Source: an uncultured Thermococci archaeon (GTDB taxonomy: Archaea > Methanobacteriota_B > Thermococci > Thermococcales > Thermococcaceae). From it: DNA of 38,510 bases. The notes under the pieces were generated by a model that did no database searches, had not been told where the DNA came from, and saw nothing but the letters and a program-made list of their open reading frames with translations. The position numbers were made by a program, and so were the translations under genes. How positions within the stretch are numbered: position 1 is the first letter of the stretch; each line of letters starts with the position of its first letter. Below are positions 1 to 11,674 of the stretch, one piece after another. The DNA is taken from positions 1-38,510 of the forward strand of contig CAZAPD010000001.1 of assembly GCA_964487115.1 (NCBI GenBank), written 5' to 3'.

Positions 1-749
<749 letters not shown>

Positions 750-757
<8 letters not shown>

Positions 758-2000
758 TTGGAACAACCTCCATCGTAATTTTGTCCCCGGCTTTAGCTAT
801 ATCCTTCTTTCTCAGCTTTATCCTTATCATCTCAGACGGCTTGACAAAAGGTAACTTCATCTCCTTTCCGATCTCAGGGAAGCGTAGCCTGACATTCTCT
901 TCAGGTTTTGCAACCCTCGCATATATCATCACATCCTTCGCCTCTGAGACGTAATGGGGAACAACAAGCCTGATGTTTCTACCCTTAACGAGCTTTTTCC
1001 ACTTCATCGCAGGCAGACCTTCATTTTTGACAAATTCATACGCTCCCACTGCCGCCTCTTCTCCCTGTTCGACGACATAATCAACGAGATCATTAATGAC
1101 GAGTGCATTTCCAGCGACGAAGATTCCCGGAACGGTAGTTTCAAGGTAGCTGTTTACAACCGGCCCCTTCGTTGCAGGATCAATAATGACACCGGCTTTT
1201 TCTATAACCTTCAGATACGGCACGAGACCCACTGCCAGAACAACTGTGTCACATTCGAGCTCCTCTTCCGTTCCCGGTATAGGTTTGAGATTCTCATCAA
1301 CCTTTGTGATGATAACCTTTTCAACTCTCTTTCTCCCTTCTATCCTTGTAACAGCATGGCTCAGGTACAGAGGTATTCCGAAGTCCTCCAAACATTGAAC
1401 AACATTTCTGGTCAATCCCCCCGGATAGGGCATCAGCTCTATAACAGCCTTAACATGGGCGCCTTCCAGAGTGAACCTGCGTGCCATTATCAGACCCACA
1501 TCTCCAGAACCTACTATGACTATCTCCTTTCCGGGCATTATTCCATAGATATCCATCATCGTCTGGGCCTCTCCAGCAGTATATATTCCTGCAACCCTGT
1601 GACCTGTTATCCCTATCTCAAACATATGCCTCTCCCTTGCGCCTGTGGCATATATAACAGCTTTTGCTTTGATATTTGGAATTCCCTTCTCTGTCACAAC
1701 CTTCAGAATCCTGTGTCTGTAGGAGTAGGGGAGAATCTCAAGAACATGGGCATTTGTGTAATGGTCAATGTTCATCTCCTCAAACTTTTTAATTAGGCGA
1801 TAAATGAACTCGGTTCCAGTGAGGTCTTCCCGGAAGTAGTGAAGTCCGAATCCGGGATGAACGCACTGTATTGGTATCCCTCCAATAAACTCCCTGTTTT
1901 CTATGAGGAGAACTTTAAGACCAAGTTCCTTTGACTTTATAGCCGCAGCAAGCCCTGCCGGGCCGCCACCGATGACGACGACATCATATTCATTCTGCAT
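750..2000 (-). CDS. FAD/NAD(P)-dependent oxidoreductase (NADH oxidase-like subunit of G3P dehydrogenase)
   Basis: GGGPAG Rossmann motif, QCVHPGFG, ATGARER, GSGDVGLIMARR, GIFVAGN; coupled to the glpA-like gene. Confidence 0.88.
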
Positions 2001-3486
2001 TCTCCTTCACCTCCCTCAGGAGGATCTTAACATCACCGATACCGTATTCCGTACCCTCTCCCTTCAGCGTAACCTTCCAGAGAGGGATTCCTGTCTCCCG
2101 GGCAATTATGTTTGCTATCCTTATTCTGCAGTATGAGCCCTGACAGGTTCCCGACATGACGCCGCTTCTCATCTTCACACCATCAAGTGTTATAGTTTCC
2201 ACTCCCATTCTCTTCATGCGATTTATTATATCCACGATGTCTCCCTCTGTTATCGTACGGCACATGCATACAACCCTTCCATAAGCCGGGTTCTGTTTTA
2301 TCAGCTCGTTCTGTTTCTGGGGAGGAAGTGTCTTAAACCAAAAAGCTTTCCTATAGGGATTCCAGTGAGATTTTTTAGTTAATTTTATACCCAGTTTTCC
2401 TTGAATGAGCTCTTCAGCTATATACTGAGCTATTGCTGGTGCAGAAGTTAGCCCCGGTGACCTTATGCCTGCGGCATTTATGAAACCCCATGGGTCATCG
2501 TAAGCATCAATAATCCATCTTCCACCGGGTGGTTCCGGCCTCAGGCCAGCAAATGTCCTTATAACCCTATTTCTGGGTGGGAGTTCCTGTATAAGCTTCT
2601 GTGCCCACTCCCAGACGAATTCAAGTCCTTCCTTGCTGGTTGAAGTATCTTCCTTTGCATCCTCAGGAAGATCTTGTGCAGTTGGGCCTATCATGAGGCC
2701 ATCGTTCATCTCGGTGATGACATAGACGCCCTTGGTAATGGGAGTCGGCGTCTGGTGGACTATTCTCGTTACCTTCGGCTCTGCATCATCATCAAAAACA
2801 AAATACTCACCTTTTCTGGGATGTATTGTGAAGTAATCTATACCCGCCATCTTTGAAATTTTATCAGCATAAAGGCCAGCGGCGTTTATAACAATATCCG
2901 CCTCAATAAATCCTCTGTTCGTTTCAACGCCTTTAACTTCTCCCTTCTCCACCTTTATCCCTATAACTTCCGTTTCCGGATGGAATCTGACGCCGTTTTC
3001 AACAGCATTCTCAACGAGAGCTGGAGCTGCCATTGGAGATGACATTAAGCCTGCTGTAGGTGCCCAGAGCGCTCCGGCAGCATTTGGATTAACATTGGGC
3101 TCAAGCTTCAGAAGTTCATCGTGGTCGACCAACCTTACTCCCGGAACACCATTTCTCCGAGCAAGCTCAAGGTAGTGCTCTGCAACCTTCATGTCCTCCT
3201 CTTCTACAGCTACCATGAGCTCTCCCGGCCATTTGGCAGGTATCCCGAGTTCTTTAGTCCACTGATACCAGATTCTGTTTCCCCTAACGCAGAGTTTTGC
3301 TCTGAGTGGATACTTATCAGGATCATCCTCATGACCCGGGTGAATTATTGCCGTATTTGCCTTGCTGACACCCATTCCTGCGTCTGCATTTTTTTCAAGG
3401 AGGTGTATCTCCAGTTCTTCATACTGACTTAAAACCCTGGCTATCGAAGAGCCCACAACTCCTGCTCCAACTATAACAACTTTCAT
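1990..3486 (-). CDS. glpA: FAD-dependent glycerol-3-phosphate dehydrogenase large subunit with C-terminal BFD-like [2Fe-2S] domain
   Basis: GAGVVG, SKANTAIIHPG, AGIRSPGLTSAP; C-terminal CMC...CQGSYC; directly downstream of glpK. Confidence 0.85.
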   Translation of the reverse strand: MKVVIVGAGVVGSSIARVLSQYEELEIHLLEKNADAGMGVSKANTAIIHPGHEDDPDKYPLRAKLCVRGNRIWYQWTKELGIPAKWPGELMVAVEEEDMKVAEHYLELARRNGVPGVRLVDHDELLKLEPNVNPNAAGALWAPTAGLMSSPMAAPALVENAVENGVRFHPETEVIGIKVEKGEVKGVETNRGFIEADIVINAAGLYADKISKMAGIDYFTIHPRKGEYFVFDDDAEPKVTRIVHQTPTPITKGVYVITEMNDGLMIGPTAQDLPEDAKEDTSTSKEGLEFVWEWAQKLIQELPPRNRVIRTFAGLRPEPPGGRWIIDAYDDPWGFINAAGIRSPGLTSAPAIAQYIAEELIQGKLGIKLTKKSHWNPYRKAFWFKTLPPQKQNELIKQNPAYGRVVCMCRTITEGDIVDIINRMKRMGVETITLDGVKMRSGVMSGTCQGSYCRIRIANIIARETGIPLWKVTLKGEGTEYGIGDVKILLREVKENAE

Positions 3487-3510
3487 GCTTTTTCCCCCAG
3501 ATGATGGTTA

Positions 3511-3532
3511 AGAAAAACCAAATAAAAAAGTT
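3511..3532 (-). terminator. Putative oligo-T terminator/attenuation tract after glpK
   Basis: Minus strand reads TTTTTTATTTGGTTTTTCTT just after the glpK stop. Confidence 0.4.
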
Positions 3533-3542
3533 GAGAACTAAA

Positions 3543-5883
<2,341 letters not shown>

Positions 5884-5915
5884 AAACCATTACACCTCCA
5901 CAGGTCTTTGTATAT

Positions 5916-6533
5916 TATTTTGTAACTTTAAAGATTATAAAGATTATTATTTATGACATTTTAATCTATGAATATTGATTTATAAAACTAAATGTAAAAG
6001 TAAGGGGTTATAACATTTTAAAGCGGCTTACATACGAGTATCGAACCAATAAAAGGATGTTAGGTTAGAATATAGAAATCACACGAAATATTTCAAAGAC
6101 ATATCATAATAGTAAAGTGTTATAACATGAAAATCAAGTCCAGAAACAACTAAAAAGTCCACCGAGAAAGATTCACTCGTCATTTACTATTATGTTTTTG
6201 AACTCCAAAAGCAATTCCACAAGCTCGTCCCAGCTTAGCTCACGTCCAAAATTCTGCTGGAACTTAAGTTTTTCCTGCTTCAGACGTAGATATGTTTCTT
6301 TCTTAAGAGGGATTGTTTTATACCTACTTTTTGGTTTATATACATATCTTTGCAAGGGCACCCGCCCCCTAACTTAATACCAAGAACATAACCCAGTTCT
6401 AATATCGATTTTAATATACTTAAAGTTTTTTGTATCCTAACGTATATCATGAAATAAATAACATTTGACGTAATATGCGTTACAACATAGAATAGTCTGA
6501 CATAACTTCATAACAAATTAAATTATTATAACA
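5916..6533. promoter_or_regulatory. Divergent glp/dha control region with repeated GTTATAAC-like sites
   Basis: GGTTATAACA 6006-6015, perfect palindrome TGTTATAACA 6118-6127, CGTTACAACA 6478-6487, TATTATAACA 6524-6533, plus weaker variants at about 5950, 6455 and 6507. Confidence 0.5.
6173..6361 (-). CDS. Small ribbon-helix-helix-type DNA-binding protein (VapB/CopG-like), candidate island regulator
   Basis: KTIPLKKETYLRLK...LSWDELVELLL beta-alpha-alpha pattern; GTG start with G-rich RBS; own BRE/TATA (AAAAAACTTTAAGTA, minus strand about 6416-6431). Confidence 0.6.
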   Translation of the reverse strand: MPLQRYVYKPKSRYKTIPLKKETYLRLKQEKLKFQQNFGRELSWDELVELLLEFKNIIVNDE

Positions 6534-6591
6534 CTATATTTATAAATATTTGATGCAAAATAAGAGTATAAATAACTCGGAGGCGAAAGCC

Positions 6592-7593
6592 ATGAAGAAA
6601 TTGATTAACAAACCCGAAGATGTTGTTAAAGAAATGTTGGAAGGAATGGCAGCAGCACACCCCGACCTTATAAAAGTGCATTTTGAACCAAACTTTATCT
6701 ACAGAACAGATGCGCCGGTTAAGGGAAAAGTAGCTTTGATTTCAGGCGGTGGATCTGGGCACGAACCTCTCCATGGAGGATATGTTGGAAAAGGCATGCT
6801 TGATGCAGCCTGCCCTGGAAACGTCTTTACATCCCCCACGCCAGACCAGATGTACGAAGCTGGAAAGGTCGTGGACAGCGGTGCTGGAATACTCTTTATC
6901 GTGAAGAACTATACAGGAGACGTTATGAACTTTGACATGGCTGCAGATCTTCTAAGAGCAGAGGGATACAACGTTGAATCTGTTGTCATAGCGGATGATG
7001 TTGCCGTCGAGCAGTCCCTCTACAGCGCAGGAAGAAGAGGCGTCGGAGGTACGGTCTTCGCAGAGAAGATTGGGGGTGCTGCTGCCGAAAAGGGATGGCC
7101 GCTGGAAGAGGTAAAGAGAGTTGTCCAGAAAGTGGCTGACAACGTTCGTTCTATCGGAATTGCCCTGACCCCATGTACCGTCCCGGCTGCAGGAAAGCCC
7201 ACATTCGAACTCGAAGAGGATGAGTTCGAGTTTGGAATTGGCATTCACGGAGAGCCCGGAAGAAAAAGGCTCAAAATGAAGCCAGCAGATGAGATAGTGC
7301 AAATGATGATGGATGCTATTCTCAAGGACATGCCACTGGAGAAGGGAGACGAAGTTGCGCTTTTGGTCAATGGAATGGGTGGAACTCCCCTCATGGAGTT
7401 ATACATTGTAAACAGAAAGGTTAGCCAGATTCTGGATGGCATCGGGGTCAAGAGATATAAAACATTAGTTGGGGACTATATAACCTCCCTTGAAATGCAG
7501 GGAGCTTCAGTAACAGTCTTAAAACTTGACGATGAGTTGAAAGAATTGTTAGATGCACCGGTGCATACCCCTGCCTTAAGATGGGGTATTTGA
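6592..7593 (+). CDS. dhaK: PTS-dependent dihydroxyacetone kinase, DHA-binding subunit
   Basis: MKKLIN start with [52 protein letters not shown]. Confidence 0.96.
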
Positions 7594-7624
7594 TTTTTTA
7601 TTCTTTATTCTTTGGGTGGTTAAG

Positions 7625-8260
7625 ATGATGTACGATACAGAGTATTTCATAAGGTTTGTAAATATATTTGCAAAGTATCTCGCGGAGAATAAGGAGTACC
7701 TAACACAGCTGGATGCTGCTATCGGCGACGGAGATCATGGCATAAACATGGACAGGGGAGCCAAAGCCGCTCTGGATAGGCTGAGCTCAATCAATCCCAA
7801 AACTCCGGGCGAGGTAATGAGAACGGTAGGAATGGCACTGCTGTCAAGTGTCGGTGGAGCAGCAGGGCCACTATATGGTACAGTATTCATGAGGATGAGC
7901 ATAGCCTTCAGGAACAATGACAAAATTGACGATAAAGGTCTGGTTTCAGCCTTGGAACAGGCTTTACTCGGAATAAAAGGGCTGGGAAAGGCAGAAGTCG
8001 GAGATAAGACTATGGTCGACGTATGGGAACCAGTAGTCAATTTTCTGAAGGAAAACATTGAAAACGGCAGAACACTGCCAGAAATCTGTGCAGATGTTGT
8101 AGCGTTAGCAGAGGAACGTATGAAAGCAACAATTCCACTTCAGGCCAGAAAAGGTAGGGCATCATATCTTGGCGAGAGGAGCATCGGGCATCAGGATCCC
8201 GGAGCAACCAGCTCATATTACTTCTTCAAGAGTCTGTGTGAGGCTATTGGGGGGGAGTAA
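7625..8260 (+). CDS. dhaL: Dihydroxyacetone kinase ADP-binding subunit
   Basis: LTQLDAAIGDGDHGINM, GGAAGPLYG, GDKTMVD, GRASYLGERSIGHQDPGA. Confidence 0.96.
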   Translation: MMYDTEYFIRFVNIFAKYLAENKEYLTQLDAAIGDGDHGINMDRGAKAALDRLSSINPKTPGEVMRTVGMALLSSVGGAAGPLYGTVFMRMSIAFRNNDKIDDKGLVSALEQALLGIKGLGKAEVGDKTMVDVWEPVVNFLKENIENGRTLPEICADVVALAEERMKATIPLQARKGRASYLGERSIGHQDPGATSSYYFFKSLCEAIGGE

Positions 8261-8262
8261 TC

Positions 8263-8652
8263 TTGCTCTCGATTTTAATTCTTTCACACAGCCCAGAGAT
8301 TGCCAGGGGATTAAAAAATATGTGTCTCCAAATGGCCCCGGATGATGTCATTATTGAGGCGGTGGGGGGAACAAAAGAAGGCAATCTGGGTATTGATGCT
8401 GAACTTGTCCTGAATAAGTTGCAGGAGTTGATAACCAACAGTGATGGTGTAGTTATATTGGGAGACATAGGGAGTACAATTCTGGCAGCTAAAAATGCTT
8501 TGAATATGCTGAGTTCTCCAGTCAATGTGTGCATAGCCGATGCTCCCCTCGTCGAGGGTGCTGTCATAGCCTCCATTGAAGCATCGTTAGGTTCACCGTT
8601 GCAGGAGGTTGTAAAAAAAGCAGAGGAAACTAAGTTCGTTAGCAAACTCTGA
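8263..8652 (+). CDS. dhaM: Dihydroxyacetone kinase phosphotransfer subunit (EIIA-Man-like)
   Basis: ILSHS phospho-His (8287-8289), GGT...GID, GDIGST, DAPLVEGAV; TTG start. Confidence 0.92.
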   Translation: MLSILILSHSPEIARGLKNMCLQMAPDDVIIEAVGGTKEGNLGIDAELVLNKLQELITNSDGVVILGDIGSTILAAKNALNMLSSPVNVCIADAPLVEGAVIASIEASLGSPLQEVVKKAEETKFVSKL

Positions 8653-8662
8653 GGTGATTCCG

Positions 8663-8929
8663 GTGGGAAGGATCGTTAAAAGAGTGACTGTCACAAATCC
8701 CGAAGGATTACATGCACGACCAGCAGGGAAACTCGTCAAGCTGCTGTCAGGAGTAAAAAGCTCTGTTACAATAAAATACAAAGGCAAAGAGATTAACGCA
8801 AAAAGTGTTCTGAGTGTTATGGCCCTCGGTATAAATCCCGGAGAGGAAATAGAAATAATAATCGAAGGTGAAGATGCTGAATCAGCGTTGAAGATAGTTG
8901 AAGGTGTTGTATGTGCAGACAGAAATTAA
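8663..8929 (+). CDS. ptsH: Phosphocarrier protein HPr
   Basis: NPEGLHARPA (His15 equivalent, 8711-8713) and NAKSVLSVMALG (Ser46 equivalent, 8804-8806); RBS GAGGTGA before GTG 8663. Confidence 0.95.
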   Translation: MGRIVKRVTVTNPEGLHARPAGKLVKLLSGVKSSVTIKYKGKEINAKSVLSVMALGINPGEEIEIIIEGEDAESALKIVEGVVCADRN

Positions 8930-10475
8930 AATCCAGGTCAATGCCTCAAATATAGTATCCGAAGGTTATGCTTACGGTGCCCTCAAGTGCATTAAGAGGG
9001 CTGATTTCTCTTCTGATGAAAAACCTTTAATTGATCTGGAAGAATTAAAGAAAAGTGCAAAGGATCTTGAGGTAAGGATAAAGAGAGAATATGGGAGCTC
9101 TGATGTACTTGGCGAGATTGGTGAGGTCCATATAATGATCCTCAAAGATCCTCTCCTATGGGAGGAATTTGAGAAAAAAGCCCAAGATAAGGGAGGAAAA
9201 CTATCTGCCAAAGATGTTATGGATGTTAGAGATTATATAATATCCCTTCTGCTATCGAGCGGCAATCCCCTGATTCAGGAGAGACAGTACGATATCAAGG
9301 ATCTGTTTAACGCTCTTCTCTCAGGAGCTGTGCACTCAAAAATTAACCAAGGTGATGTTATTTACATCGATGAGCTCTATCCATCCGATGTCGTGGCATT
9401 TCACGATGCCGGTGTAGGGGCCATCTTGAGCAGAAAAGGCTCTCCTACAGCCCATGCATCCATTTTGACTCAGGCTCTTGAAATTCCATATATCTATGGT
9501 GTTCCGCCCTTAGATGAATACTGTGATATGAAAGTCTTCGTTGATGCCGTCCATGGGGAGATAAGGATAAACCCCGGAGACGTCAAGAAAATAATGACAA
9601 TTATTAAAGAATATGAAGCAGAGAAACAGACCCTGAAAAAATATTCCGCAATGCGATTTGATAATATTAAGGTCATGGCAAATATAGGCTTCCTTCAGGA
9701 GATAGATGTTGCAAGAAAAAAAGGAGCGGACGGAATCGGACTTTTTAGAACAGAATTCCTCTTCCTCAATAGAGCCCAACCTCCATCAGAAGATGAGCAG
9801 TTTCTGGTATATAAAAAAGTACTTGAAGCGTTTTTCCCGGACAAGGTTATCATCCGGCTGTTAGATGTCGGAGGGGATAAATTTGTTTCCTATCTCAGGC
9901 TTCCAGAGGAGGAGAATCCTTTCCTTGGAGTACGGGGCATCAGAGCTCTGATGGAAAATGAGGAGATATTGAGAACCCAGCTGAGGGCTTTAATACGAGC
10001 ATCGGAATATGGAAATCTGGGAATACTCATTCCCATGGTATCAAAGCCGAAAGAAGTTGCTTACGTTAAGAAACTCATTGGAAAGATCACAAAGACAGTT
10101 GAGTCCTATGGGGACTTTACCCTCGGTATAATGGTTGAGGTTCCATCAGTAGTCTTTTCAATTGAAAAATTTGTTGATCAAATAGATTTCGCAAGCATAG
10201 GTACAAATGATCTAACCCAGTATATATTCGCTGCCGACAGAATGAATCCAGATGTCTCGGAGTACTACAACGATGAAGATGATGCGGTGCTTACTGCTGT
10301 AAAACTCGTGGCTGAAAAAATGCTGGAGGCAGGAAAGCCCATTGGAATCTGTGGAGAACTTGCAGGAAAGAGGCACATGACCAAAAAGCTCGTGAGCTTT
10401 GGTATATCATCACTCTCCGTTGCACCAGCAAAAGTGCCCAGAATAAAAAAAGCAGTCTATGAAGCGATTAAATAA
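8913..10475 (+). CDS. ptsI: PEP-protein phosphotransferase (PTS Enzyme I)
   Basis: GSPTAHASIL phospho-His (9453-9455), GIGLFRTEFLF, EENPFLGVRGIR, MVEVPS, DFASIGTNDLTQY, GICGE; no ATP-grasp domain, so not PpsA/PPDK; start uncertain (8898-8913). Confidence 0.93.
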   Translation: MQTEIKIQVNASNIVSEGYAYGALKCIKRADFSSDEKPLIDLEELKKSAKDLEVRIKREYGSSDVLGEIGEVHIMILKDPLLWEEFEKKAQDKGGKLSAKDVMDVRDYIISLLLSSGNPLIQERQYDIKDLFNALLSGAVHSKINQGDVIYIDELYPSDVVAFHDAGVGAILSRKGSPTAHASILTQALEIPYIYGVPPLDEYCDMKVFVDAVHGEIRINPGDVKKIMTIIKEYEAEKQTLKKYSAMRFDNIKVMANIGFLQEIDVARKKGADGIGLFRTEFLFLNRAQPPSEDEQFLVYKKVLEAFFPDKVIIRLLDVGGDKFVSYLRLPEEENPFLGVRGIRALMENEEILRTQLRALIRASEYGNLGILIPMVSKPKEVAYVKKLIGKITKTVESYGDFTLGIMVEVPSVVFSIEKFVDQIDFASIGTNDLTQYIFAADRMNPDVSEYYNDEDDAVLTAVKLVAEKMLEAGKPIGICGELAGKRHMTKKLVSFGISSLSVAPAKVPRIKKAVYEAIK

Positions 10476-10487
10476 AAGAGAAAAGAA

Positions 10488-11615
10488 TCACTTCACAGGT
10501 TCAAATCTGTCGCTGAGCTTCTTAAGAACCCCTGGCAGGGTTGTGTATTCCATTTCTTCAAGTGGAAGTCTGTGGGGTTCAAATGGTCCATGCCTGCGCA
10601 TGTAGTCAGTAATTTCGAGTGCCTTCTGCCGAGCCCAATCAAAGGCAGGGTCATCAAAGAGGTCGACCGGGCCAATAAGTTTTCCTTCAGAGTTTATCTG
10701 CCAGCCGAGTGCAACAACCCTCGGAGGTCCATCGAATCTCGTTGGATTTGAGTATCTGAGGGGAACGGGCATTATTGGACCATTGTGAGAACCCCTCATC
10801 CAACCGCTGACCAGTTCAGGGAATGCAAATGGTTCGAGAACCTCGCCAAGAGCTGGAAGACCACTCTGGGCCCTAACAATTGCCACAGGGTCGTCCTTGC
10901 CAACGTACTCTCCGGCAATCTGGTAAAGTTTCTCCGTACTTACAACAGCAACTGGCTCGTTTTTGTCTATTTTGTGGCCTTCCTTTGGAAATACACGTTT
11001 GATGACATACCTCGATTTTGCACCTATAAGTGCCAACAGATCGTAGAGCTCCTCAGGTGTGTTTAAAATAACACGTTTATGCTCTTTGATGTCCCAGACC
11101 TCGAAGCGGAAGCCCATGTGCATGTTGGGATCTATTATAAGCCCTGCAGTGTTAAATGGATCTGCAAACATCCTGAATATCGGAAGGTTAAAAGCCCCCG
11201 GTTCGGTCTTATCCATGTGGAAAGTAACAATTGGCTCACTCTTTCTGAGTGTTATCTCTATCTCAGCTATGCCGGGCCCCATTCCTCTTATGTTCCCACT
11301 GAAAGCATCTTTAAGTAAATCCTGCCCAGCACCATAGAGACCAAGCTCTTTGGCAACCTCAGTCCCCTCTTTAAATGCATCCCACGCGAGGCCGTGGATT
11401 TCTTCACTGTCCACGCCCTTTTTGTGCGTCATGATAAGCTGGAGGTCGTCTCCACAATGAGTTACATAGAAATCTACAAGAATTCCATCTTCCCTTGCTC
11501 TACTGAGAACTTCTTTAGCCTTTTCAATAAGAGCAGGGTGGACACTTGAATGTCCGGGCCAGCCACCTATGTCTGCCTTAATTACGCTAACTGTTATTTT
11601 CTCCCCAACAGCCAT
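10488..11615 (-). CDS. fbp: Fructose-1,6-bisphosphate aldolase/phosphatase (class V FBPase)
   Basis: SVIKADIGGWPGH, CGDDLQL, GLYGAGQDLL, YVGKDDP, GWMRGSHNGP, GPFEPHRL. Confidence 0.97.
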   Translation of the reverse strand: MAVGEKITVSVIKADIGGWPGHSSVHPALIEKAKEVLSRAREDGILVDFYVTHCGDDLQLIMTHKKGVDSEEIHGLAWDAFKEGTEVAKELGLYGAGQDLLKDAFSGNIRGMGPGIAEIEITLRKSEPIVTFHMDKTEPGAFNLPIFRMFADPFNTAGLIIDPNMHMGFRFEVWDIKEHKRVILNTPEELYDLLALIGAKSRYVIKRVFPKEGHKIDKNEPVAVVSTEKLYQIAGEYVGKDDPVAIVRAQSGLPALGEVLEPFAFPELVSGWMRGSHNGPIMPVPLRYSNPTRFDGPPRVVALGWQINSEGKLIGPVDLFDDPAFDWARQKALEITDYMRRHGPFEPHRLPLEEMEYTTLPGVLKKLSDRFEPVK

Positions 11616-11674
11616 TGATATCACCCCACCATTTTTACTATTTTAGATTTATAAAATTTTATCATGCTAAAATA

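Follow-up and report, generated by a model that had tools for sequence, protein, structure and literature searches.

The window analyzed here is the entire 38,510-nt contig CAZAPD010000001.1 of an uncultured Thermococcales archaeon, whose draft genome consists of 132 contigs and is 96.5% complete. Between positions 6592 and 10475, the calls of open reading frames (ORFs) gave five plus-strand ORFs in the order dhaK-dhaL-dhaM-ptsH-ptsI, the predicted parts of a dihydroxyacetone (DHA) kinase driven by phosphoenolpyruvate (PEP) through the phosphotransferase system (PTS). The dhaK gene (6592..7593, +; 333 aa; TIGR02363) encodes the DHA-binding subunit, dhaL (7616..8260, +; 214 aa; TIGR02365) the ADP-binding subunit, and dhaM (8263..8652, +; 129 aa; TIGR02364) a phosphoryl donor with a single EIIA-Man-like domain. 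They are followed by ptsH for HPr (8654..8929, +; PF00381) and ptsI for Enzyme I (EI; 8898..10475, +; TIGR01417), which as longest ORFs have 91 aa and 525 aa, respectively. The gaps are 22 nt for dhaK/dhaL, 2 nt for dhaL/dhaM, and 1 nt for dhaM/ptsH, and ptsH and ptsI overlap by 32 nt. HPr probably starts 3 codons later than the longest ORF, at GTG 8663, and EI 5 codons later; the database gene call for ptsI has 520 aa. Residue numbers of motifs follow the longest-ORF numbering.

The longest dhaK ORF opens with TTG at 6550, and the ATG at 6592 has a GGAGG at 6579-6583, 8 nt upstream. A TATA-like box, TTTATAAATA (6539-6548), also precedes dhaK. Both elements were kept in the relatives, which agrees with the archaeal ribosome-binding and TATA signals that the original prediction had read from this DNA alone.

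Family scores and phospho-transfer residues

DhaK matched PF02733 (Dak1) with 463 bits and TIGR02363 with 500.9 bits (cut-off 406), and gave 372 bits against the PTS-dependent DhaK of Escherichia coli, with both His motifs aligned. These motifs, GGGSGHEP (52-59) and GIHGEPG (217-223), contain His57 and His219 and were aligned to solved structures. As the co-activator DhaQ, the protein scored 277 bits, under the cut-off of 413. DhaL matched PF02734 (Dak2) with 197 bits and TIGR02365 with 243.6 bits (cut-off 138), and its ADP/Mg motif GDGDHG (37-42) aligned with IGDADHG of E. coli DhaL. Unlike in the ATP-dependent kinases, DhaL is a stand-alone ORF, unfused to DhaK. The model of the ATP-dependent DHA kinase, TIGR02361, gave 353 and 106 bits, far under its cut-off of 575.

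DhaM showed 73 bits for PF03610 (EIIA-man) and 107.6 bits for TIGR02364 (cut-off 98.25). Its LSHS motif (7-10) contains His9, and the stretch ILILSHSPEIA aligned with IVIVSHSPEIA of the solved Lactococcus lactis DhaM (3ct6). HPr matched PF00381 with 98.9 bits (cut-off 23); GLHARPA (18-24), in which His20 is the His15 equivalent, aligned with GIHARPA of solved HPr structures, and AKSVL (49-53) aligned to the same structures as the Ser46 equivalent. EI gave 393.3 bits for TIGR01417 (cut-off 341.7), 323.5 bits for PF02896, and 41.5 bits for PF00391. Its motifs PTAHAS (183-188, with His186), TNDLTQY (436-442), and ICGE (484-487, with Cys485) aligned to the solved EI 2hro; the alignments to solved EI began at about residue 67. 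NF008478, the profile for the E. coli-type DhaM with its donor parts fused (473 aa), was matched piecewise by DhaM (1-126), HPr (159-231), and EI (306-447), so between them the three separate proteins account for the domains present in that known fusion. A five-gene operon with intact catalytic residues and no EIIB or EIIC gene, as first proposed, was thus borne out by the family scores, the motifs, and the genome searches given below.

Like the E. coli DhaK-DhaL-DhaM system (1oi2, 3pnl, 2btd), the window encodes DhaK and DhaL as separate subunits, contains the His motifs as well as the ADP/Mg motif, and has a phosphoryl donor of the EIIA-Man type, predicted to be charged from PEP. In E. coli, EIIA, HPr-like, and EI-N-like parts are fused into one DhaM of 473 aa that the general EI and HPr feed, whereas the window has three separate genes and its operon includes an EI of full length. 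E. coli also has many EII permeases, whereas none was found in the genome of the window, and its regulator is DhaR, in place of which a small ribbon-helix-helix (RHH)-like protein, orf62, may act here. The mechanism of the E. coli kinase is reportedly that set out by Gutknecht and co-workers in 2001 and by Bachler and co-workers in 2005. The DhaKLM set of L. lactis (3ct6, 3cr3, 3ct4) resembles the window in its stand-alone EIIA-Man-like DhaM of ~125 aa with the SHSPEIA phospho-His motif. L. lactis DhaKLM is fed by a general EI and HPr that are encoded elsewhere and also serve many sugar PTS permeases.

An archaeal precedent is the DhaKLM of Haloferax volcanii (HVO_1544-1546), which, in the available part of PMC3863723, lies beside glpK, is PEP-dependent, and is patchy among relatives. 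H. volcanii is a halophile, whereas the window belongs to a hyperthermophile lineage, and haloarchaea also have EII permeases; for their fructose PTS, PMC11519228 cites Pickl et al. 2012.

No EII gene was found in the locus. When 12 PTS proteins of related genomes were searched against this genome by tblastn, the only matches were the locus itself, the PEP synthase on contig 64, and weak noise, namely a short piece of contig 9 and a weakly matching pfkB-like piece. In profile searches of the 96.5%-complete genome, EIIC of the PF02378 family gave just one sub-threshold match of 17 bits, within glpF, and EIIC of PF03611/PF03609, EIIA-2 (PF00359), and EIIB (PF02302/PF03830/PF00367) gave zero matches. 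The genome holds one HPr, one EI, and one EIIA-Man domain, that of DhaM, all within the operon. As there is neither an EII nor a second HPr, EI, or EIIA-Man domain, DhaM is the only recognizable acceptor in the relay and the sole recognizable client of EI and HPr, within what this incomplete draft contains. Since these searches gave no EII permease, the locus is classed as a phosphorelay of the PTS type and not as a transporter of sugars. The earlier idea of a self-contained relay without a permease was therefore supported, with the caveat of a draft genome.

The intact operon probably encodes a classical PTS-dependent DHA kinase, in which phosphate would pass from PEP through EI, HPr, DhaM, and the ADP on DhaL to DHA, giving dihydroxyacetone phosphate (DHAP) and pyruvate; we put the probability at about 0.8. 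This relay is that of the original prediction, and family membership favours it over the other readings. EI would be phosphorylated by PEP and would hand the phosphate to HPr, and HPr would pass it on to DhaM. DhaM would then rephosphorylate the ADP held on DhaL, and the resulting DhaL-ATP would phosphorylate DHA bound to the DhaK histidine. DHA (and glycerol) may enter through the co-distributed GlpF and be trapped by phosphorylation, and DHAP would join the triose pool. PEP use may be stoichiometrically balanced, because one PEP would be regenerated per triose. Expression from the dha and glp promoters may be governed by divergent orf62 and the TTATAACA sites by the TATA box. The predicted PEP-dependent DHA kinase is real and probably functional.

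Several observations weigh against this reading. The N-terminal HPr-binding domain of EI (PF05524, residues 20-129) scored 20.3 bits, below the cut-off of 24.4. With 132 contigs in the draft, the absence of EII falls short of proof. In one related genome (G079), the dha-linked ptsI is split at residues ~226/232 by an insertion of ~960 bp (L023:10738-11700) with two transposase-like ORFs, which suggests that the relay is dispensable or replaceable there. No glycerol dehydrogenase was recognized in the genome of the window with PF00465 and NCBIfam, other dehydrogenase families not having been searched; three genes of the Fe-ADH family gave 22-98 bits against the NF006941 cut-off of 336. Finally, according to the available part of PMC3863723, growth of H. 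volcanii on DHA owes more to glycerol kinase than to DhaKLM, so the relay could be redundant in part with the glpK next to it.

Glycerol genes, orf62, and the dhaK promoter

On the minus strand upstream of dhaK lies glpF (5068..5883, -), which encodes an aquaglyceroporin (PF00230 MIP, 163.8 bits) and is likely the entry route for DHA and glycerol. It was found in six of the 99 Thermococcales species genomes, every one a DhaK carrier. In most of the bacterial loci related to this one, glpF also stands immediately upstream of dhaK.

The next gene, glpK (3543..5093, -), encodes a glycerol kinase with FGGY domains of a dha-linked type. A glpK gene was found in 84 of the 99 genomes, and the type in the window recurred with 88-97% identity in seven other genomes (six DhaK carriers and G076), whereas the remaining 76 genomes with a match showed at most 76% identity. 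In a quick tree, the two Thermococcales types were parted by a branch with a Shimodaira-Hasegawa-like approximate likelihood-ratio (SH-aLRT) support of 99. Both types are present in G097, with the second copy at C12:12732-14204. The glpK of a Thermosipho metagenome-assembled genome (MAG; L112:3467-5000) is 84% identical and joined the window type at an SH-aLRT of 93, a node that was not starred. The best solved relative of the window GlpK is the Thermococcus kodakarensis enzyme (848 bits).

Further along the same strand are a glycerol-3-phosphate dehydrogenase (G3PDH; 1990-3486, -), a NOX-like flavoprotein (750-2000, -), and a small subunit (392-766, -). This set matched NCBIfam models of glycerol-3-phosphate oxidase/dehydrogenase and of FAD oxidoreductases, with scores under the equivalog cut-offs. 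Their order matches the GlpTk-NOX-MOX cluster of Thermococcus in the available text of bioRxiv 10.1101/2024.02.29.582781, and the G3PDH, NOX, and MOX genes are syntenic across the dha loci. The operon belongs to an accessory glycerol/DHA cluster of ~10 kb, about 392-10475, which is patchy across three genus-level groups of Thermococcales. The operon had at first been described as adjoining core Thermococcales genes; this did not hold, as the glpK cluster is not a core set but an accessory variant, one that goes together with the dha genes. The convergent neighbour on the right, a class V fructose-1,6-bisphosphate (FBP) aldolase/phosphatase (FBPase; 10488..11624, -; PF01950, 620.8 bits), adjoins the operon in only four of the seven dha loci. 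It marks the right-hand boundary and lies outside the module.

Between glpF and dhaK lies orf62 (6173..6361, -), a 62-aa predicted RHH protein and candidate regulator. It was present in six of the seven DhaK genomes, the same six that carry glpF, and in none of the 92 others; the seventh carrier is just 75% complete. Among the six homologues, 29 columns are invariant. Pfam and NCBIfam gave no match for orf62. Its structural model (predicted local distance difference test score, pLDDT, of 71.5) showed an extended N-terminus and then two helices. Foldseek against the PDB returned nothing at E <= 0.001, and the all-against-all VIA-align comparison gave mostly RHH domains in its top rows (MazE, TraM, NikR, AmrZ, ParD, PutA, Arc, SvtR), with Z scores of 3.2-5.1 that are weak for so small a domain. 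Assignment of orf62 as a PRD protein was considered and rejected: two homologues reached 17-19 bits under a cut-off of 23, no His is conserved, and the folds favour RHH. No homologue was found in the bacterial glpF-dhaKLM-ptsHI loci, even at E <= 10.

One copy of the motif TTATAACA (6526-6533, +) stands 5 nt ahead of the dhaK TATA-like box, and further copies were seen at 6008-6015 and in the palindrome TGTTATAACA at 6118-6127. The window holds eight matches, compared with 1.46 expected, and four of the eight, one of them as TGTTATAACA, fall inside the 700-nt glpF-dhaK spacer. The position immediately upstream of the TATA-like box was occupied by TTATAACA in all seven dha loci, exactly in six and with one mismatch in G097. 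The orf62 protein may bind these TTATAACA/TGTTATAACA sites. In the two closest relatives (L021 and L022), ~200 extra bases lie between orf62 and the dhaK promoter (alignment columns 100-300, compared with 6362-6520 of the window).

With the glycerol genes always beside the operon, the relay might instead be mainly regulatory or protective: DhaK/DhaL/DhaM or phosphorylated HPr would sense triose or PEP status and act on the glycerol genes or on further targets, or the relay would detoxify traces of reactive DHA or glyceraldehyde, and it would not serve growth on DHA. The lack of an internal DHA-forming enzyme in the PF00465 and NCBIfam searches, the retained Ser46 equivalent of HPr, and the heavier reliance of H. 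volcanii on GlpK for DHA all fit such a role. E. coli DhaK and DhaL, in turn, are co-regulators of DhaR. The locus, however, has no DhaR-like or PRD-type regulator, and DhaK scored as the enzyme equivalog and not as DhaQ. The catalytic residues were all kept, and the ratio of non-synonymous to synonymous substitution rates (dN/dS) was as low as in core enzymes. We therefore regard a mainly regulatory relay as unlikely, although it is the most probable of the alternatives weighed here.

In place of DHA, the same PEP-driven relay might phosphorylate a different carbonyl sugar of short chain length, for example D-glyceraldehyde or erythrulose. Glyceraldehyde and further short ketoses are among the substrates of Dak-family enzymes, and the PF00465 and NCBIfam searches of the genome gave no GldA. 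The equivalog-level score of DhaK, its 372 bits to E. coli DhaK with identical binding-site motifs, and the tight linkage of the operon to glpF and glpK in both archaea and bacteria argue for DHA, and a different substrate is improbable.

Distribution, assembly, and origin

The profile survey found DhaK in seven of the 99 Thermococcales species genomes, five of them among the 80 of high quality, under three genus codes, and in seven of the 133 genomes of the phylum, all in one family. EI exceeded its curated cut-off in 14 of the 99 species genomes; numerous matches under the cut-off were PEP synthase of ~800 aa. These counts speak against the operon being a one-off in the order: it is uncommon, yet not unique. 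The layout of the window was common to G049, G066, and G097 in tblastn. G055 carried a 2.8-kb fragment with the end of dhaM, ptsH, and ptsI, and G079, G086, and G092 had dhaKLM and then a convergent ptsI-ptsH pair adjoining the G3PDH cluster. Across the dha loci, identity to the window was 89-97% for DhaK, 77-91% for DhaL, 68-86% for DhaM, 65-88% for HPr, and 55-82% for EI. In G097, the contig breaks between orf62 and dhaK, and by-eye reading of the upstream DNA (L020:1-520) suggested the tail of a transposase similar to those in G079.

A description of PTS or DhaKLM in Thermococcales was not found by full-text literature search, whose scope excluded subscription journals and supplements. The claim that this route of DHA use is undescribed in the order stood within the searched full texts, and in public records the genes are annotated by name. 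The available parts of a glycolysis review (PMC12965863) and of a Haloarcula paper (PMC11519228) describe archaeal PTS for haloarchaea only, and a review from 2024 on how thermophiles transport sugars (PMC11212667), in its available part, names no PTS of an archaeal thermophile. The accessible text of Sulfolobus acidocaldarius glycerol papers, of a haloarchaeal genome comparison, and of the GfcR paper likewise attributes archaeal PTS to haloarchaea only. In the Thermococcus barophilus Ch5 genome note and the description of T. bergensis, the words phosphotransferase, PTS, glycerol, and dihydroxyacetone are absent.

The mechanism itself is textbook, and the gain lies in distribution, evolution, and regulation, not in a new principle. 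With EI and HPr in about one in seven Thermococcales species, some of which would keep them only to drive a DHA kinase, the range of the PTS extends to hyperthermophilic Euryarchaeota. To the operon as first reported, the analysis added a PTS lineage in ~14% of Thermococcales species, a larger module, a candidate RHH regulator with a promoter motif, and cultured species for tests. Some of the named EI relatives, 61-73% identical, come from cultured Thermococcus species, which should open the predictions to laboratory tests. The compact five-protein His-phosphorelay may serve as a model for phospho-histidine transfer at >=80 °C.

As the genome is a 132-contig draft and the nearest non-archaeal DhaK is bacterial, we weighed whether the operon is bacterial DNA misjoined or misbinned into it. 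The operon lies inside a 38.5-kb contig amid Thermococcales genes, among them the GlpK that is nearest to the T. kodakarensis enzyme. The ptsI-FBPase junction recurred in three other assemblies, and the orf62-dhaK neighbourhood also recurred in other assemblies, with one related locus within a 1.25-Mb contig. A Logan contig of 8529 nt, the product of a second assembler, spanned 5000-11118 at a depth of 49.7, with flanks of 41-52; as the run may be the source data, this serves as a check on the assembler and not as an independent sample. In the runs X2 and X3, the region was present in contigs of 160-520 nt, and none of those listed bridged the ptsI-FBPase junction. The GC content of the operon (0.42-0.48) was like that of the flanks, and the rate of synonymous substitution (dS) of the dha genes resembled that of the FBPase neighbour. 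A chimeric join with bacterial DNA, which would have undone the original prediction, was excluded by the recurrent junctions and by the 8.5-kb contig that crosses them at flank-like depth, and misjoining or misbinning in general is very improbable.

Pairwise dN/dS of the window against G066, G049, and G097 was 0.008-0.087 for the five operon genes, 0.02-0.06 for orf62, and 0.04-0.05 for glpF; several pairs were saturated and gave no dS. The dS values were 0.8-3.3 for the five genes and 0.7-3.3 with orf62 and glpF included, similar to the FBPase neighbour. The operon genes, orf62, and glpF are under strong purifying selection. Low dN/dS together with FBPase-like dS speaks for long co-residence with the flank in this subgroup and against a decaying recent import.

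The neighbours of the other EI genes were assigned by a Pfam scan of 48 ORFs. A full fructose-type PTS operon (pfkB, EIIA-2, EIIB-EIIC, HPr, EI) was present in three loci (L029:8331-13185, L032:8340-13210, and L033:4306-9450), and a fourth, L031, was assigned to this group by the EI tree alone. The pfkB of these loci is 1-phosphofructokinase-like, one locus has a DeoR C-terminal fragment, and the arrangement is like that of the haloarchaeal fructose PTS. L031, from a complete Thermococcus genome, has HPr and EI in a single 628-aa ORF (L031:8346-10232, -), and the public protein carries PF00381 and the EI domains; this may be either a natural fusion or a lost stop codon. A second, EIIC-GAT-type cluster was present in L026:5620-15951 and L028:8956-18600, both with a full-length EI, HPr, EIIA-2, two SIS-domain proteins, and an amidohydrolase. 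L026 additionally has EIIC-GAT and PTS_IIB, and L028 a sorbose-type IIB and EIIA-Man; L027 and L030 were placed with this type by the EI tree alone. Just upstream of EIIA-2 and EI, both clusters contain a gene of the Orc1/Cdc6 family with AAA+ and winged-helix domains (L026:7662-8960, L028:11147-12439), an odd setting for such a gene.

Outside Thermococcales, the nearest DhaK proteins are bacterial, with 69-71% identity over the full length, and their hosts are bacterium GBS-1, Thermoflexus, Thermomicrobiaceae, a Thermosipho MAG, and Desulfurellales. Acquisition of DhaK from Bacteria is plausible on these identities. In a quick DhaK tree, the seven archaeal rows formed one group (SH-aLRT 98) without a specific bacterial sister. 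The horizontal acquisition proposed earlier thus kept a plausible bacterial source for DhaK at ~70% identity, but the tree did not pin down the donor. Bacterial DhaM, HPr, and EI are just 29-42% identical to those of the window. EI is in general much less conserved than DhaK, so this gap in identity is no proof of separate origins.

In the EI tree, in which the bacterial rows were only 24 EIs beside DhaK relatives, all 15 Thermococcales rows fell on one side (100). The dha-linked EIs were sister to the fructose-PTS EIs of Thermococcales (100), apart from the EIs of the bacteria with the closest DhaK. The phylogenies called for earlier thus gave a single archaeal DhaK group lacking a specific bacterial sister, and an EI that goes with the Thermococcales fructose PTS. 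In a search of 5.8 billion proteins, the named EI matches with at least 49% identity were all from Thermococcus or Palaeococcus, and the next had at most 43%, among them a match of 38% from a Methanomethylicia-like archaeon; several high-scoring matches carried no name and could not be assigned. Plasmid-borne haloarchaeal EIs, to which the haloarchaeal comparison was confined, were 34-38% identical to the window EI, no nearer than bacterial ones.

We tentatively propose that Thermococcales own a long-resident, hyperthermophilic EI/HPr lineage that was wired to a fructose EII, to an EIIC-GAT-type EII, or to DhaM alone. The window would then hold a minimal permease-free PTS in a laterally mobile glycerol/DHA island that also brings an aquaglyceroporin and a glycerol kinase type of its own, along with a new RHH regulator acting on TGTTATAACA sites beside the TATA box. 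This proposal may well prove wrong.

A contiguous dhaK-dhaL-dhaM-ptsH-ptsI was found in four bacterial loci (L055, L097, L111, and L112), and the five-gene architecture is thus already known from Bacteria. The clusters of bacterium GBS-1 (L111) and the Thermosipho MAG (L112) resemble the window in having glpF with the five-gene order, glpK, G3PDH-NOX-MOX, and a DhaK of 69-71% identity. They differ from it in their distant DhaM, HPr, and EI, in EIs that lie across the tree from those of all Thermococcales, and in that no orf62 homologue was found there.

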